Assembly (NCBI GenBank): GCA_964623775.1
Contig: CAZUVH010000002.1
Span: forward strand, 1,089-65,088
Direction: 5' to 3'
Source of the DNA: an uncultured Candidatus Saccharibacteria bacterium
GTDB lineage: Bacteria > Patescibacteriota > Minisyncoccia > Phycocordibacterales > UBA2100
DNA length: 64,000 nucleotides
The translations under genes were made by a program, and so were the position numbers. Under the pieces are notes generated by a model. The model was not told where the DNA came from. It did no database searches and worked only from the letters and a program-made list of their open reading frames with translations. Below, piece after piece: positions 23,469 to 33,805 of the stretch. How positions within the stretch are numbered: position 1 is the stretch's first letter; every line of letters begins with the position of its first letter.

Positions 23469-24059
23469 ATGCAAAAAAAGATTTTCTTACTCCTCGGTCA
23501 TCCAGATAAAAGCGGCATGTGCGGTAAATTGGCCGACGCATACGAAACGGGTGCGCGCGAGGGCGGTCATGAGATTCAGCGTCTCAACATCGGGGAAATG
23601 CAGTTTGATCCCATTTTGCACAAGGGTTATCGCGCGATGCAGGATTTGGAGCCGGATCTCAGGAAATTTCAGGAACTGGTGCAATGGGCGGATCACACGG
23701 TGATCATCTATCCTGTGTGGTGGGTCGGTATGCCGGCGCTTCTCAAAGGACTATTTGATCGCGCCTGGCTTCCGGGATCGGCATTTCGATATATCAAGAC
23801 CAAGGCGGGCAAGCGCACCATCTTCTGGCATCGCCTTTTCCGCGGCAAGACGGCACGCACGATCCTCACGAGCGGTACCGCTCCATTGCTCGTGCGTTTT
23901 TTGCCAGGCAACGTCAATGCGCAGCTTAAATGGGGGATTCTGTGGTTTGCGGGCTTTTCCGTACGCAGCCTCTGGCTCGGCCCCGCAGAAAACGTCCCCG
24001 AAGCAAAGTGCACCGCATGGTGCGATCGCGCCAAAGAATTGGGACGTAGAGCAAGATAA
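23469..24059 (+). CDS. flavodoxin-like fold NAD(P)H dehydrogenase (quinone) family protein
   Basis: LLGHPDKSGMCGKLADAY...HTVIIYPVWWVGMPALLKGLFDR matches the Flavodoxin_2/MdaB-KefF family. Confidence 0.65.
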   Translation: MQKKIFLLLGHPDKSGMCGKLADAYETGAREGGHEIQRLNIGEMQFDPILHKGYRAMQDLEPDLRKFQELVQWADHTVIIYPVWWVGMPALLKGLFDRAWLPGSAFRYIKTKAGKRTIFWHRLFRGKTARTILTSGTAPLLVRFLPGNVNAQLKWGILWFAGFSVRSLWLGPAENVPEAKCTAWCDRAKELGRRAR

Positions 24060-24067
24060 CAAAATAA

Positions 24068-24094
24068 AACGAGCGGTCGAAACCGCTCGTTTAT
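24068..24094 (+). terminator. intrinsic terminator
   Basis: acgagcggt-cgaaa-accgctcgt hairpin followed by ttta-tctt. Confidence 0.5.
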
Positions 24095-24099
24095 CTTGT

Positions 24100-24175
24100 G
24101 AGGATAGCGAGAGAAGTGAAAGTTTACTTTCACTTCCGAGCGACGCAGCAAGTAAAGGTTTATCCTTTCAGAATG
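24100..24175 (+). ncRNA. repeated structured element, copy A (two hairpins with TTTA loops flanking conserved CCGAGCGACGCAG)
   Basis: gaggatagcgagagaagtgaaag-ttta-ctttcacttc-cgagcgacgcag-caagtaaagg-ttta-tcctttc; paralogous copy at 33731..33805 with compensatory stem changes. Confidence 0.45.
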
Positions 24176-28834: not shown

Positions 28835-29104
28835 TCACAGTAGCCACAAACTATTGTAGCCATCGATTTGCCATCGTTGCCACCCGAGGACAATCCACTG
28901 CACAGTGTTAATCCCCATAAAAAAGGCACTCCAATACTGCTCAAGGGCAGCATCAGCCACCACCATAAGTATCATCCCAATTGTGACACCGACGGATGTG
29001 AGGAGCGCGGGCTTTGAATCACTGCGGTGAACTGTCGGGATCATTGTGATGATGAAAATAATATTTGCGACCATCATCGCGGCATCTTGCCAGGTGATCT
29101 CCAT
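28835..29104 (-). CDS. small three-TM membrane protein (hypothetical)
   Basis: 89 aa, three hydrophobic helices. Confidence 0.4.
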   Translation of the reverse strand: MEITWQDAAMMVANIIFIITMIPTVHRSDSKPALLTSVGVTIGMILMVVADAALEQYWSAFFMGINTVQWIVLGWQRWQIDGYNSLWLL

Positions 29105-29170
29105 TATCGAGGCCTCCTTTTACTGAAGAAAATAGTATCACCACTGAGGCTGATATGGTACCTTATTTCA

Positions 29171-32100
29171 ATGGAGGGTTACGATCATAAAAAGATAGAA
29201 AAGAAGAGGCGGGATGCGTGGAGGAAGTCTGATCTCTACAAAGCTGCAGATTCTGTGAAAGGGAAGGACAACTTCTTCCTTCTGACAGAATTTCCGTATC
29301 CATCGGGCAATCTCCACGTCGGTCACTGGTACGCCTTTGCGCTCCCCGACATCCTCGCGCGCTACATGCGCATGAAGGGCAAAAATGTCCTTTTCCCAAT
29401 GGGATTCGACGCTTTTGGTCTGCCCGCAGAAAATGCCGCGATCAAAAATAAATTGAATCCGCGCAGATGGACCGAAAAAAACATCGAGTACATGAAGCAG
29501 CAGATCGCATCGATGGGTGCATCGTTCGACTGGTCGCGAGAAGTGCAGACGATCGACCCGGCGTACTACAAATGGACGCAGTGGCAATTCCTCCAATTTT
29601 TCAAAAAGGGTTTGGTGTATCAGAAGGACACGGCTGTCAATTGGTGCCCCAAAGACAAGACAGTGCTCGCCAACGAGCAGGTGGTGGATGGTAAATGCGA
29701 ACGCTGCGATAGTGTCGTCGAGCAGAAGCTGATGCTCCAATGGAATATCAAAATCACCGAGTACGCCGATCGTCTGATCGATGATCTCGAGCCACTCGAT
29801 TGGCCGCAGGAGATTAAAGAGTCGCAAAAAAATTGGATCGGAAGAAGCGAGGGTGCAGAGATTGACTTCCCGCTTGTACTAGACGCCGATAAGAAAAAGT
29901 ACACGTACTTGTATTTACATGGGTACAAAAGCCAGGCGGACCGGCCGCGAAGCCATTGGTATCGCGCGGGGCTTGAAGCCCTCGGCCACACGGTTGTGAT
30001 TCCTCAGCTACCTGGCACCGAACACCCCATTGAGAGCGAACAAGTGGAGACAGCGCTCAGTGCGACCGAATGGAATGAGAATACTATTGTTGTAGGACAC
30101 AGTCTCGGAGCGATCGTGGCGATGAAGGCACTCCTCAAGTCAGGTAAAAAGATCGGCGGGCTAATATTGGTGGCCCCGGCATTAGACCCGGAATCGGCTG
30201 CGAAAGCACCGAGAACTGGCTTGAATAAGGAATTTAAAAAACCATTTCACGAGACTTTCGATTGGAATATTGATTACGAGAAAATAAAAACCCTCACTGA
30301 TCGTCGCGTCATACTCTCTGATCTTAAAGAGGATCATCGCGTGGAGTATCTGAGAGAACTTTCTAAGAAGATTGACGGTCAGCTCGTGGAGACTACTGCC
30401 GTAGAAGAGCATTTTACAGGGGATACGGAGCCCGACGTACTTATGTGGCTTCGACCAACCGCGCGGGTTTTCACCACACGCCCGGATACGCTCTTTGGCG
30501 CAACGTATCTCGTGCTGTCGCCCGAGCATCTCTGGGTGCAGCTCGCGCTCAAGCATAGGACGGTGCTCAAGAATAACGATGCTGTGCAGAAGTATGTCGA
30601 TGATGCAAAGAGGAAATCAGACATGGATCGTCAGACGAGTAAGGAGAAAACAGGGGTACAACTCGAGGGTGTGTACGCGATCAATCCAGCAAATGGCGAG
30701 AAGATCCCCCTGTATGTCGCGGATTATGTGCTCGCTACCTACGGCACGGGTGCGATCATGGCAGTGCCTGCCCACGACGAGCGCGACTACGAATTTGCGC
30801 AGAAATTCAATATTCCTATCACGCGTGTCGTTGACCCGGTGCTTACACAAACATCCGGCTCGTCTGCATTTAAAGAGGGGGAAGAATACCAAGACAGCGA
30901 TGGTGTTATCGCGGTTGTAAAGCATTGGGCTGAAGATAAGTATCTCGGCCTCAAGTGGAAGGGCACGGACTGGGTAACGCTTCTCACGGGCGGTATCGAC
31001 GACGGATACACCGCGGAACAAACTGTGCTCAAGGAAATTTCGGAAGAGACTGGCTACAAGAATGCAAAAGTAGCGCGGCAGCTCGCGACAATCCACAGCA
31101 AGTATTTTCATGTGCCGAAAGACAAAAACCGTTTCGGACATGCGCCGACGTTCTATGTGCAACTTACCGATGGCGAGCGTGAGGAAATTTCCGCCGAAGA
31201 GGAATCGAAGCACGAGCTTGTTTGGCTTACGCCAGCCGAGATGGCCTCGGCTCTTACGGCTGTGTCACACAGGGAAGCGCTCTCGATACTCAAAACCGGT
31301 GTCTATACCGGTGCGGGGATGCTCACTAATTCGGGGGAATTCGACGGCATGATGTCTGGTGAGGCCAAGGCAAAAATAACCGAGAAATTTGGAAGAAAAA
31401 AAACGACTTATAAACTGCGCGATTGGATTGTCTCGCGCCAGCGCTACTGGGGTGTGCCGATTCCGATCATCCACTGCGAGAAATGCGGTCCGGTAGCAGT
31501 GCCCGACAAGGACTTGCCGGTGAAATTGCCCGACGTCGAAGATTATCTCCCGACGGGCGACGGTAAATCGCCGCTCGCCAAGGTTGAATCTTTTGTGAAC
31601 GTTGAGTGTCCCAACTGTAAGAAGCCTGCGAAAAGGGAAACAGACACGCTCGATACGTTTGTCGATTCATCGTGGTATTTCCTGCGTTACACCGATCCGA
31701 AAAATAAAAAGGAGTTTGCCGATCGCGAAAGCCAGGATCATTGGATGCCTATAGATCTCTATTCTGGCGGCGCTGAGCACACCACCATGCACCTCCTCTA
31801 CAGTCGCTTCTGGCACAAAGCGCTCTACGATCTCGGACTCGTAAAAGATCCCGAGCCGTACAAAAAACGCATGAACAGGAGCCTCATCATGGGCCCCGAT
31901 GGTCAGAAAATGAGTAAATCGCGCGGCAATGTAATCGATCCTGACGAGGTCGTCGATCGACTCGGCGCCGATACGGTACGCATGTATCTCGCGTTTATCG
32001 GTCCGTACAATGAAGTATCCAACTATCCGTGGAATCCCGATGGCGTCGTGGGCGTGCGCCGATTCCTTGAGCGCATATTCCGACTGCAAGAAATCGTGCA

Positions 32101-32575
32101 AAAAGACGACGTGCCAGAGCTCAATGCCGCGCTTCACCGAACAATCAAAAAGGTGGGGGATGATATAGAGGTGCTGAAATTCAATACCGCAATCAGCTCT
32201 CTTATGATATTCCTCAACAAAGTCGAAAAGAAAAAATCGATCGGCGAGCGTCAGTGGGCGTTCCTTTTGAAGTTGCTCGAACCTTTTGCGCCATTCATTG
32301 CCGACGAGCTGTGGAGCCGATCCGGTCACAAGAGCGATCTTCTTGAGGAAGAGTGGCCGCAGTACGACGAAGGACAAATGCGCGAGCAAACAATCACGAT
32401 CGCGGTGCAGGTCAATGGCAAGACTCGCGCGCAGATCCAGGTACCCTCCGACGCCGATAAGGCGGCAGTGGAAACGCAGGCAAAAGAAGCCATAGCGACC
32501 CGCATCCTCGGCAAAAAGATCGAGAAGACCATTGTCGTCCCGAACCGTCTCGTCAATTTCGTCGTTGAGGCCTAG
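29171..32575 (+). CDS. leuS: leucyl-tRNA synthetase carrying two inserted hydrolase domains (alpha/beta serine hydrolase and Nudix)
   Basis: PYPSGNLHVGH (HIGH), TTRPDTLFGATY (CP1 editing domain), KMSKSRGN (KMSKS), C-terminal tRNA-binding domain. About 1134 aa versus ~800-860 for typical LeuRS. Confidence 0.9.
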   Translation: MEGYDHKKIEKKRRDAWRKSDLYKAADSVKGKDNFFLLTEFPYPSGNLHVGHWYAFALPDILARYMRMKGKNVLFPMGFDAFGLPAENAAIKNKLNPRRWTEKNIEYMKQQIASMGASFDWSREVQTIDPAYYKWTQWQFLQFFKKGLVYQKDTAVNWCPKDKTVLANEQVVDGKCERCDSVVEQKLMLQWNIKITEYADRLIDDLEPLDWPQEIKESQKNWIGRSEGAEIDFPLVLDADKKKYTYLYLHGYKSQADRPRSHWYRAGLEALGHTVVIPQLPGTEHPIESEQVETALSATEWNENTIVVGHSLGAIVAMKALLKSGKKIGGLILVAPALDPESAAKAPRTGLNKEFKKPFHETFDWNIDYEKIKTLTDRRVILSDLKEDHRVEYLRELSKKIDGQLVETTAVEEHFTGDTEPDVLMWLRPTARVFTTRPDTLFGATYLVLSPEHLWVQLALKHRTVLKNNDAVQKYVDDAKRKSDMDRQTSKEKTGVQLEGVYAINPANGEKIPLYVADYVLATYGTGAIMAVPAHDERDYEFAQKFNIPITRVVDPVLTQTSGSSAFKEGEEYQDSDGVIAVVKHWAEDKYLGLKWKGTDWVTLLTGGIDDGYTAEQTVLKEISEETGYKNAKVARQLATIHSKYFHVPKDKNRFGHAPTFYVQLTDGEREEISAEEESKHELVWLTPAEMASALTAVSHREALSILKTGVYTGAGMLTNSGEFDGMMSGEAKAKITEKFGRKKTTYKLRDWIVSRQRYWGVPIPIIHCEKCGPVAVPDKDLPVKLPDVEDYLPTGDGKSPLAKVESFVNVECPNCKKPAKRETDTLDTFVDSSWYFLRYTDPKNKKEFADRESQDHWMPIDLYSGGAEHTTMHLLYSRFWHKALYDLGLVKDPEPYKKRMNRSLIMGPDGQKMSKSRGNVIDPDEVVDRLGADTVRMYLAFIGPYNEVSNYPWNPDGVVGVRRFLERIFRLQEIVQKDDVPELNAALHRTIKKVGDDIEVLKFNTAISSLMIFLNKVEKKKSIGERQWAFLLKLLEPFAPFIADELWSRSGHKSDLLEEEWPQYDEGQMREQTITIAVQVNGKTRAQIQVPSDADKAAVETQAKEAIATRILGKKIEKTIVVPNRLVNFVVEA

Positions 32576-33675: not shown

Positions 33676-33681
33676 AACTAA

Positions 33682-33712
33682 CCCTTACCTCAAACGTGAG
33701 GGTTTTTGTTTT
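33682..33712 (+). terminator. intrinsic terminator
   Basis: cccttac-ctcaaac-gtgaggg followed by tttttgtttt. Confidence 0.6.
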
Positions 33713-33730
33713 GCTTACCGTTTTTCTAAC

Positions 33731-33805
33731 GAGGATAGTGAGGGAAATGAATACGTGTTTTCATTTCCGAGCGACGCAGTCAGCAAGAGGTTTACCTCTT
33801 GAATA
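33731..33805 (+). ncRNA. repeated structured element, copy B
   Basis: gaggatagtgagggaaatgaa-tacgtgtt-ttcatttcc-gagcgacgcagt-cagcaagagg-ttta-cctcttg; shares conserved linker and hairpin architecture with copy A. Confidence 0.45.

Follow-up and report, generated by a model that had tools for sequence, protein, structure and literature searches.

Repetitive extragenic palindromic (REP) sequences and their paired REPIN forms, which are associated with RAYT transposases of the Y1 HUH type, are short intergenic hairpin repeats with conserved unpaired or head nucleotides on covarying stems. They are non-autonomous, lie mostly at gene 3′ ends and are presumed to be recognized as folded single strands. 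Palindrome-associated transposable elements (PATEs) derived from IS200/IS605 have no terminal inverted repeats, no target duplication and strand-specific subterminal hairpins at both ends; a short T-rich sequence precedes their insertion point, and they can be excised precisely. Integron attC sites and other folded single-stranded DNA sites, such as attP of the CTX phage, are recognized by structure and combine a few conserved nucleotides with variable covarying stems, central parts of variable length and strand-specific folding. Here, we describe an element that shares features with all of these systems and is present twice in a 64,000-nt stretch of DNA (the window; contig CAZUVH010000002.1) from an uncultured Candidatus Saccharibacteria bacterium. 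In kind, it is among the structure-recognized small repeats and is set apart from them by an internal-loop core, a superphylum-wide spread, a lack of inverted repeats and target duplications and a tRNA-embedded variant. We read it as a mobile, non-autonomous, structured element, with a probability of roughly 55%. Two classes are distinguished below: class 1, to which the window copies belong, and class 2, the tRNA-linked form.

The element differs from each of its closest counterparts in defined respects. Neither the GTAG head nor the pair of inverted units found in REP/REPIN sequences is present in the window copies or the family consensus. Compared with REP sequences, the internal loop that is conserved here is much larger, the copy number is apparently low (two in 64 kb), conservation spans a superphylum rather than a species group, and no RAYT gene is present among the flanking genes examined. 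The T-rich 5′ flank partly matches the insertion preference of PATEs, but the two end hairpins of the element are unlike each other and abut the ends, with no room for guide tetranucleotides; moreover, no replication-strand bias is observed, and no TnpA gene lies near any copy (flanks of 99 loci). The RYYYAAC/GTTRRRY boxes of attC are absent from both copies and from the consensus, neither cassette open reading frames (ORFs) nor an integrase gene is found nearby, and the conserved part of the element is a side-arm internal loop, not the recombination point; tandem arrays, a further point in common with attC, occur in the tRNA-linked form. A classical miniature inverted-repeat transposable element (MITE) was rejected because terminal inverted repeats and a target duplication of fixed length are lacking. 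An IS110 bridge RNA was also rejected, as no recombinase is encoded beside any copy and the element has only one conserved internal loop, which is invariant rather than target-specific.

In the proposed mechanism, the plus strand of the element would fold as a single strand, either DNA or RNA, and the conserved loop on its covarying stems would provide the recognition structure for a trans-acting mobilizing activity encoded elsewhere in the genome. By analogy with REP/RAYT, IS200/IS605 and integron attC, a structure-specific enzyme acting on the folded strand would insert the unit and remove it precisely. Insertion would be targeted to T-rich tracts, often behind terminator-like hairpins, and a related form is built into a four-way junction directly after tRNA genes and bracketed by a duplication of the tRNA end. 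Several independent lines indicate that the element is a discrete unit that is gained and lost and not a regulator bound to one locus. The sequences show directly that the fold is strand-specific and its loop invariant, that the ends are discrete and the element is duplicated by itself, that orthologous sites are filled or empty, that hairpins followed by T-tracts are preferred and that one variant duplicates the tRNA end.

The window contains exactly two copies of the element, both on the plus strand, copy A at 24090–24171 and copy B at 33720–33804. The two conserved blocks, GAGGATAGYGAGRGAA and CCGAGCGACGCAG, each have two exact matches in the window (0 mismatches); all remaining matches need 2–3 mismatches and are within the expectation from shuffled sequence. 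A covariance model of the family, run on the window with filters off, scored 78.7 bits for copy A and 72.1 bits for copy B, and the next match scored 10 bits. Copies A and B are 77% identical across the element in a pairwise alignment, which collapses outside it, and copy B was found unchanged in three Logan contigs from the same organism. An earlier note on this DNA, made from the letters alone, had reported two copies of ~75 nt in the same orientation at these places, and both the sequence and the exact block matches bear this out.

The core of the element is a hairpin, HP-I, that begins with the closing helix P1 (5 bp) and continues with the 5′ loop strand (13 nt; GAGGAUAGYGAG plus N), a hairpin stem (P2), the 3′ loop strand (11 nt; CGAGCGACGCA) and the returning strand of P1 (P1′). 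Helix P1 became apparent from aligned relatives: in all of them, the G and 4 nt after CGACGCA form pairs with the 4–5 nt that precede GAGGATAG. A second, variable hairpin, HP-II, starts one nucleotide after HP-I. Copy A begins with a T-rich 5′ end (TTTAT) and, following HP-I and HP-II, terminates in ..TTTCAG at the family boundary. Its P1 is formed by CTTGT (24095–24099) and GCAAG (24148–24152) with one U·G pair, and its internal loop is formed by GAGGATAGCGAG plus A (24100–24112) and CGAGCGACGCA (24137–24147). The P2 hairpin, GAAGTGAAAG/TTTA/CTTTCACTTC, occupies 24113–24136, and HP-II, AAAGG/TTTAT/CCTTT, occupies 24154–24168. In copy B, P1 pairs CTAAC (33726–33730) with GTCAG (33779–33783) and has one A·C mismatch, and the two loop strands are GAGGATAGTGAG plus G (33731–33743) and CGAGCGACGCA (33768–33778). 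The P2 hairpin of copy B, GAAATGAA/TACGTGTT/TTCATTTC, is located at 33744–33767, and its HP-II, CAAGAGG/TTTA/CCTCTTG, at 33784–33801. Both hairpins proposed by the earlier note are thus real, but the closing helix P1 had been missed, and the supposed invariant linker is one strand of an internal loop, namely the 3′ loop strand of copy A together with C24136 and G24148. The element measures 75–190 nt across the family, of which the window copies are minimal members.

Taken alone, the two window copies are weak evidence for structure, since single copies fold only modestly better than shuffled sequence (z of −2.7 to −3.5). The structure test was made on 53 sequences that had been chosen solely by the two conserved loop blocks. 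P1 and P2 were absent from the search pattern, and the stems therefore provide a fair test. In the 53-sequence alignment, P1 is paired in 94% and P2 in 89% of the cells, and double changes occur in 13 of the 15 pairs, with covariation at 4/5 pairs of P1 and 9/10 pairs of P2. The covariation score was reached by none of 500 shuffles, which substantiates the structured element with compensatory stem changes that had been proposed from the two copies. When the partner strand was slid by 1–3 columns, pairing fell to 39–50%. An alignment-free count at fixed offsets in 90 distinct copies yielded 1034 Watson–Crick, 53 G·U and 18 A·C combinations; the excess of G·U over A·C identifies the plus strand as the folding strand. 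HP-II also covaries across the family, as its differing stems (AAAGG/CCUUU, AUGAG/CUCAU, AAAUG/CAUUU, AAAGU/ACUUU, AAUGG/CCAUU, AAGUCCGG/CCGGACUU and, in copy B, AAGAGG/CCUCUU) all remain complementary. Its size ranges from a hairpin with a 4-nt loop, as in the window copies, to a multi-hairpin extension of ~100 nt. An extended closing helix that would pair TTTAT with AAAG was rejected because only 58% of the cells pair and because the 5′ T-run stays unchanged when the HP-II strand changes, as with ATGAG in locus L040. Coding on the minus strand, considered because ATGAAAGG...GATAA frames an ORF in long relatives, was rejected as well. The spacing between the conserved blocks varies from 45 to 60 nt without a 3-nt periodicity, which marks the element as non-coding, and copy A contains in-frame stops on both strands.

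Within the element, conservation is strongest in the internal loop, in which ~24 nt are nearly invariant across phyla. The earlier statement that selection acts on structure rather than on sequence thus applies to the covarying stems but not to the loop. The two loop strands probably form an inner helix, GCGAG/CGAGC, in which sheared G·A pairs occur in tandem, together with a purine-rich bulge. Two copies that were not picked by the exact pattern (L008:138–212 and L127:1075–1149) carry U at the Y position and A at the facing G, and these changes at positions 21 and 64 are the compensation expected if C21 and G64 truly pair. At the tandem G·A positions, the opposite strand would give tandem U·C mismatches. 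These features also bear on a different explanation, in which the element is a functional non-coding RNA domain, such as a protein-binding or sponge-type small RNA, that forms a small multigene family and is mobile only incidentally. The loop, with its tandem G·A pairs and a sarcin-ricin-like U·A / A·G stack, would then bind a conserved factor of the candidate phyla radiation (CPR), HP-II would act as a terminator, and the tRNA-linked copies would be scaffolded in a tRNA-like fold and co-transcribed and processed with the tRNAs. The strand-specific fold, a tandem G·A geometry that works on the plus strand only and the extreme conservation of the loop across phyla speak for such an RNA. In addition, HP-II followed by a U-run resembles an intrinsic terminator in subfamily 1b and in copy B, where it scores as terminator-like on the plus strand; the terminator form fits neither HP-II of copy A nor HP-I of either copy. 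We consider a functional RNA domain unlikely on the whole, although it deserves to be kept in view through the observations that follow.

The element has discrete ends. Conservation begins 10–12 nt before the core with a T-run, which is followed by (A/G)TC and P1, and ends abruptly after ...CCTTTCAT or ...CCCTTTAT (...TTTCAT or ...TTTAT). The left end can be written as ~(T)n-(A/G)TCTG... and the right end as ...TT(C)AT. Upstream of position −12, no positional conservation was observed across the family, and an element with its own promoter was rejected on this ground. The lack of a conserved promoter and the stop of conservation 10 nt upstream also count against an RNA domain and leave a discrete small RNA gene, which the earlier note had listed as one of three options, unsupported. 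When paralogues from the same genome were compared with their flanks, identity extended from TTAT(C/T)TG to TT(C)AT and the flanks were unrelated, indicating that only the element was copied. The mean identity of P2 is 0.77 within genomes versus 0.53 between genomes (permutation p ≤ 0.0005). The occurrence of several copies per genome with differing stems does not favor an RNA domain. Together with precisely empty sites, the discrete ends, the several copies per genome and the element-only duplication make a REP/MITE-like repeat the best of the three earlier options.

The orientation of the element with respect to its two neighboring genes is random (−− 13, ++ 8, +− 7, −+ 5). This result gives no support to the third option, a protein-binding boundary element tied to gene orientation. 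An all-against-all BLAST comparison of flanking ORFs, made first for 54 and then for 99 non-redundant loci, revealed no conserved partner gene. An association with a partner gene was consequently rejected, because no neighbor protein recurs among the 99 loci, and a riboswitch or cis-regulatory leader was rejected because the loci share no neighbor, the orientation is random and the window copies face the 3′ ends of convergent genes. About half of the class-1 copies have no upstream plus-strand gene from which they could be transcribed by read-through, which is a further difficulty for an RNA domain.

Strong hairpins directly precede 15 of 68 class-1 copies, compared with 2 of 68 control windows. 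The element thus seems to insert preferentially just after terminator-like hairpins, a preference that both window copies fit. Group IIC introns likewise insert just downstream of intrinsic-terminator hairpins, precisely and without duplication, but they exceed 600 nt, compared with 75–190 nt for the element, which has no domain V/VI, GUGYG 5′ end, reverse transcriptase or Rfam match. The association with hairpins would also be expected if the element were a cis-acting intergenic device (a terminator, an insulator or a 3′ untranslated region (UTR) stabilizer) that is merely repeated, like enterobacterial REP. Both window copies lie between convergent genes and next to terminators, HP-II can itself resemble a terminator, and the right end and the stop codon of the convergent gene often overlap. 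However, such a device is difficult to reconcile with copies in 5′ leaders (rpoB) or beside gene starts, and a plain terminator or stabilizer needs no ~24 invariant loop nucleotides across phyla. Because orientation to both neighbors is random and close relatives manage without the element at the same sites, we rank a purely cis-acting terminator or insulator role as the least likely explanation, with little probability left to it.

Presence and absence of the element as a unit are observed at orthologous sites. In the nearest relative with fetchable DNA, GCA_025450795.1 (CysS 79% and YchF 89% identical), both window sites are empty. In this genome, cysS ends in a plain terminator, the interval between the flavodoxin-like gene and ychF holds a different ORF, and the covariance model found nothing at either orthologous site. 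The rpoB leader offers the clearest comparison; in four genomes (L047, L040, L063 and L041), the element separates rpoB from a leader hairpin with a T-tract. L123, whose RpoB is 97% identical to that of L047 and whose leader is nearly identical, lacks exactly the element segment, and the element is also absent from the rpoB leaders of L124 (the leader-sister of L041), L125 and L126. The filled site of L041 reads ...gatgcattt / GTTCTGCC..GTCTCAT / atatacgaaaatttaataac, and the empty site of L124 reads ...gatgcgtttt / gatacgaaaatttaataac (slashes mark the junctions). In the more distant L127, the corresponding position is occupied by a copy from another subfamily, which follows a different hairpin with a T-tract. 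Empty orthologous sites in close relatives are not what an RNA domain would predict; its stable retention in the rpoB leader of four genomes is. The rpoB leader itself is strongly conserved in these Kaiserbacteria-like genomes (L047, L040, L063, L041 and L123–L126; ~200 nt upstream of rpoB) and contains a TTGACA..TATACT promoter-like pair, a conserved block of GACATTTGC..GAGCTGATTGAGTTGCGGTTGCGCTTTT and the hairpin with its T-tract. This leader looks like an attenuator and does not depend on the element.

About a third of the loci represent the tRNA-linked class 2, none of whose features are displayed by the window copies. Class-2 units fold into a four-way junction of the core, a closing helix (S1), a hairpin with the consensus GAACC..GGUUC and a hairpin homologous to HP-II. 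They are found ~75 nt beyond tRNA genes (Ser, Tyr, Lys, Gly, Gln or Val), past the terminator of the gene, and invariably share its orientation. They close with a direct copy of the tRNA 3′ end, 17–18 nt in length (positions 59–76, including CCA). The resulting direct repeat is 17–55 nt long with a spacing of 169–189 nt, and the unit spans ~175 nt. Helix S1 pairs a strand of the element with a tRNA-derived strand and changes with the identity of the tRNA (CCAGCUGGAAGU/ACUUCCAGCUGG in L008, GAGGAU/AUCCUC in L023 and GGGGGUG/CAUCCCC in L017). With the tRNA, class-2 units share only a T-loop remnant, the 3′ half of the T-stem, the 3′ strand of the acceptor stem and CCA. L028 and L030 represent the simplest cases, with the core and HP-II apparently inserted in the T-loop of a tRNA 3′ fragment, the T-stem of which is kept by compensatory changes. 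The duplicated segment is almost always exactly the 3′-terminal 17–18 nt of the tRNA (L003–L006, L008, L012, L017, L023, L036, L043, L045 and L048). The tRNA stretch from 59 to 76 is the one that is complemented by retroviral primer-binding sites, and the 17–18-nt duplication may reflect either a crossover point in the T-loop or a tRNA-primed step.

Class-2 units occur in tandem in L008, L043 and L091. Arrays of at least two units of ~175–190 nt extend over L091:1700–2043, L043:3190–3570, L008:95–420 and L027:1700–1990, and the L043 assembly breaks into Ns within its array. The distal tRNA copy of L008 is decayed, as expected from serial insertion. Genes beside class-2 units encode a type I methylase (restriction-modification), another DNA methylase, a Fic protein and a Schlafen/AlbA_2 protein, which suggests that these neighborhoods are integration hot spots. 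Class 2 resembles integrase-mediated insertion at tRNA 3′ ends, as in genomic islands and in cis-mobilizable-element (CIME)-like units that have no integrase themselves, in the duplicated tRNA end that brackets the unit, in its tandem accretion and in the island-type cargo genes beside it. In contrast to such islands, the bracketed unit is ~175 nt long and gene-less, no integrase is encoded in it or beside it, and a strand of the element pairs with the duplicated tRNA segment to close the junction. No third copy of the tRNA repeat was detected within up to 7 kb, and a large island marked by a distant third repeat was accordingly rejected. The constant co-orientation with the upstream tRNA and the cloverleaf-like four-way junction that ends in the ..NCCA tail of the tRNA also speak for an RNA domain, and the tRNA-scaffolded, CCA-ended form fits both a protein-binding RNA and a ribozyme or guide RNA well.

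If the element were a ribozyme or guide-like RNA of a new, small type, able to process or insert itself through self-cleavage (as in twister and hatchet) or target pairing, this would explain the invariant loops on variable stems, the scattered multi-copy spread and the inclusion of flanking sequence in the fold. Twister, twister-sister, hatchet and pistol show the same combination of an invariant loop on covarying stems, scattered multi-copy occurrence in either orientation, no fixed partner gene and a wide phylogenetic distribution. Helix S1 covaries with the identity of the neighboring tRNA in L008, L023 and L017, the tRNA-derived junction of L003, L008 and L091 contains CUAUCC(UC), the complement of GAGGAUAG in the loop, and insertion and loss are precise. 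On the other hand, no Rfam ribozyme or intron family matches the element even at E ≤ 10, the cleavage site is not inferable, the complementarity to targets is short (4–8 nt) and not universal, and no reverse transcriptase or recombinase is linked. The presence or absence of the element as a unit at the DNA level further distinguishes it from the small self-cleaving ribozymes. As the comparison proceeds by analogy of pattern throughout, a ribozyme or guide RNA would be a rather improbable explanation. A hammerhead-like GAUGAG...GAAC in class 2, a kink-turn, integron boxes and group II/III intron ends were also looked for by inspection of the sequences, and none fit.

Several observations weigh against a mobile, non-autonomous element. 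The ends, TTAT(C/T)TG... and ...TT(C)AT, are not inverted repeats of each other, and no terminal inverted repeats are present. Class-1 copies are not flanked by direct repeats above background (control maximum 12) and display no clear target duplication. Neither GC skew (44:32, p = 0.2) nor the coding strand reveals a significant orientation bias. A replication-strand bias was rejected on this count, which is unfavorable because lagging-strand transposition of a single strand would predict a bias. HP-I and HP-II are dissimilar, whereas the ends of IS200/IS605 elements resemble each other. The copy number looks modest, with two copies in the 64-kb window and ~10 extra copies in ~800 kb of fetched flanks. 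The mobilizing enzyme is hypothetical, since none of the copies in the 99 loci with examined flanks has a linked gene for a transposase, an integrase or a reverse transcriptase. The element is kept at one rpoB-leader site in four diverged genomes, so some copies are stably inherited, and the pattern of filled and empty sites could have arisen from precise deletions instead of active excision. Finally, the near-invariance of the ~24-nt loop exceeds what is usual for transposon ends and is equally compatible with a catalytic RNA or with a site for some universal partner in the cell; for this reason, the protein-binding RNA and the ribozyme or guide RNA stay alive as alternatives. In a more speculative combination, the loop would be the active center or guide of a mobile element of a new kind, a small RNA or folded single strand that recognizes hairpins with T-tracts as well as tRNA T-loops and guides itself precisely into and out of these sites. 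The CCA-ended four-way-junction form would then be the expressed master copy of this ribozyme- or guide-based system, which would be confined to Patescibacteria and conserved throughout them. We hold this combination to be a long shot.

The breadth of the family was assessed by scanning one genome per species for the two loop blocks separated by a gap of 18–45 nt, and metagenomes were scanned identically. The scan returned 52 genome loci and 63 metagenome loci. Named records are nearly all from Patescibacteria, including Saccharibacteria, Kaiser-, Falkow-, Uhr-, Adler-, Nomura-, Portnoy- and Spechtbacteria, Peregrinibacteria, Gracilibacteria and Paceibacterota. The relatives of its CysS, YchF and RpoB proteins place the bacterium of the window close to Kaiserbacteria within Patescibacteria. 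The same pattern gave 0 matches in viral contigs, phage records and plasmid records, and a phage or plasmid origin was rejected for this reason. Six loci (L011, L023, L024, L030, L036 and L043) are from metagenome-assembled genomes (MAGs) labeled as uncultured Gammaproteobacteria. The copies in these MAGs are of almost the same type as copies from Falkowbacteria and other Patescibacteria (for example, L016 versus L023, L024 and L089); the labels may be wrong or the bins contaminated. The core covariance model also recovers diverged copies with a few loop differences (TCGAGCGTCGCAG, CGAACGACGCAG and CCGAACGCCGCAG), as well as weaker variants in L019, L071 and L095, and the true family is therefore wider than the exact pattern.

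No known family was found to contain the element. Rfam 15 gave 0 matches in the whole window at gathering thresholds and nothing on the element around both copies at E ≤ 10. Among 18 related loci, Rfam matched only the flanking tRNAs and one unrelated group I intron, and full-length class-1 and class-2 elements gave chance hairpin matches only. The group I intron (102 bits; L010:654–893, minus strand) is positioned ~4.4 kb from the element in a MAG with two class-2 units and has no apparent relation to them. ARAGORN and Rfam called the genuine neighboring tRNAs but never called the element as a tRNA or transfer-messenger RNA. A full-text literature search for the loop strings and for CPR RNA motifs returned unrelated primers only and no description of the element. 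The family is thus previously uncatalogued, being outside Rfam 15 and without a published description that we could find. The search for further copies and for a known family, which the earlier note had named as a possible refutation, came out in favor of the element, with more than 115 further loci and no Rfam family.

To our knowledge, almost no non-coding or repetitive elements have been described for the tiny, streamlined genomes of Patescibacteria. The present family occurs in many Patescibacteria phyla, gives one of the clearest covariation signals for an unannotated motif and is accompanied by pairs of filled and empty sites. If it is a mobile element, it is CPR-wide and has an unusual structured recognition core and a tRNA-embedded form that copies exactly the last 18 nt of the tRNA. 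If it is a functional RNA or ribozyme, it constitutes a new, broadly distributed class. Either way, the model (P1, loop, P2 and HP-II) can be searched to annotate CPR genomes and offers a testable handle on the gain and loss of DNA in reduced genomes.

The window copies are surrounded by housekeeping genes. The flavodoxin-like gene, the GDSL/SGNH hydrolase gene and cysS named by the earlier note were all confirmed, as were the 3′ ends of convergent minus-strand genes at both copies. No transposase, integrase or reverse transcriptase is encoded near the copies, Rfam detected no tRNA near them in the whole window, and no flanking tRNA-type repeat is present. A hairpin with a T-tract lies directly upstream of each copy, as previously described, but the one at copy A does not score as a plus-strand terminator. 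This GC-rich hairpin (24067–24092), directly 5′ of copy A, has A/T tracts on both sides in the manner of a bidirectional terminator, and its T-tract merges with the 5′ end of the copy. The terminator consensus scan scored it on the minus strand only (tail TATTTTGTTA); copy A is therefore inside the 3′ UTR of the minus-strand 67-aa ORF, whose stop codon (TGA, 24168–24170) coincides with the end of the copy, and not simply behind a plus-strand terminator. The terminator of the GDSL/SGNH hydrolase gene (33680–33704, plus strand) was identified by the same scan ~20 nt 5′ of copy B. As these upstream terminators shield both copies, each is probably poorly transcribed on its folding strand. The position of the copies just behind the terminators of plus-strand genes is another point against an RNA domain. 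Both window copies look like resident, currently passive occupants of convergent intergenic regions.

The stop codon of cysS (TAA, 33792–33794, minus strand) is located in the HP-II loop of copy B, and the 3′ strand of this HP-II is the end of the cysS coding sequence. The four C-terminal residues of CysS (VFKR*) are the same in an element-less relative (L058:1640–1700). Their codons differ, with AAACGT in the relative and AAGAGG in the window, and the window codons complete the 7-bp stem of HP-II, so that the coding end and the element hairpin share sequence. At 23965–24096 (plus strand), where the flavodoxin-like gene ends and its terminator lies, Rfam gave a weak PrrB/RsmZ-like match (E = 0.023; 19 bits, with the gathering score at 44), for which the terminator hairpin is most likely responsible. 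Between the two copies, the window encodes a leucyl-tRNA synthetase of 1182 aa (29027–32575, plus strand) with two domains inserted within the synthetase, an alpha/beta-hydrolase (Ser_hydrolase/Abhydrolase_6; residues ~295–414) and a NUDIX domain (residues ~630–749). The same inserted-domain architecture is found in the leucyl-tRNA synthetases of relatives.

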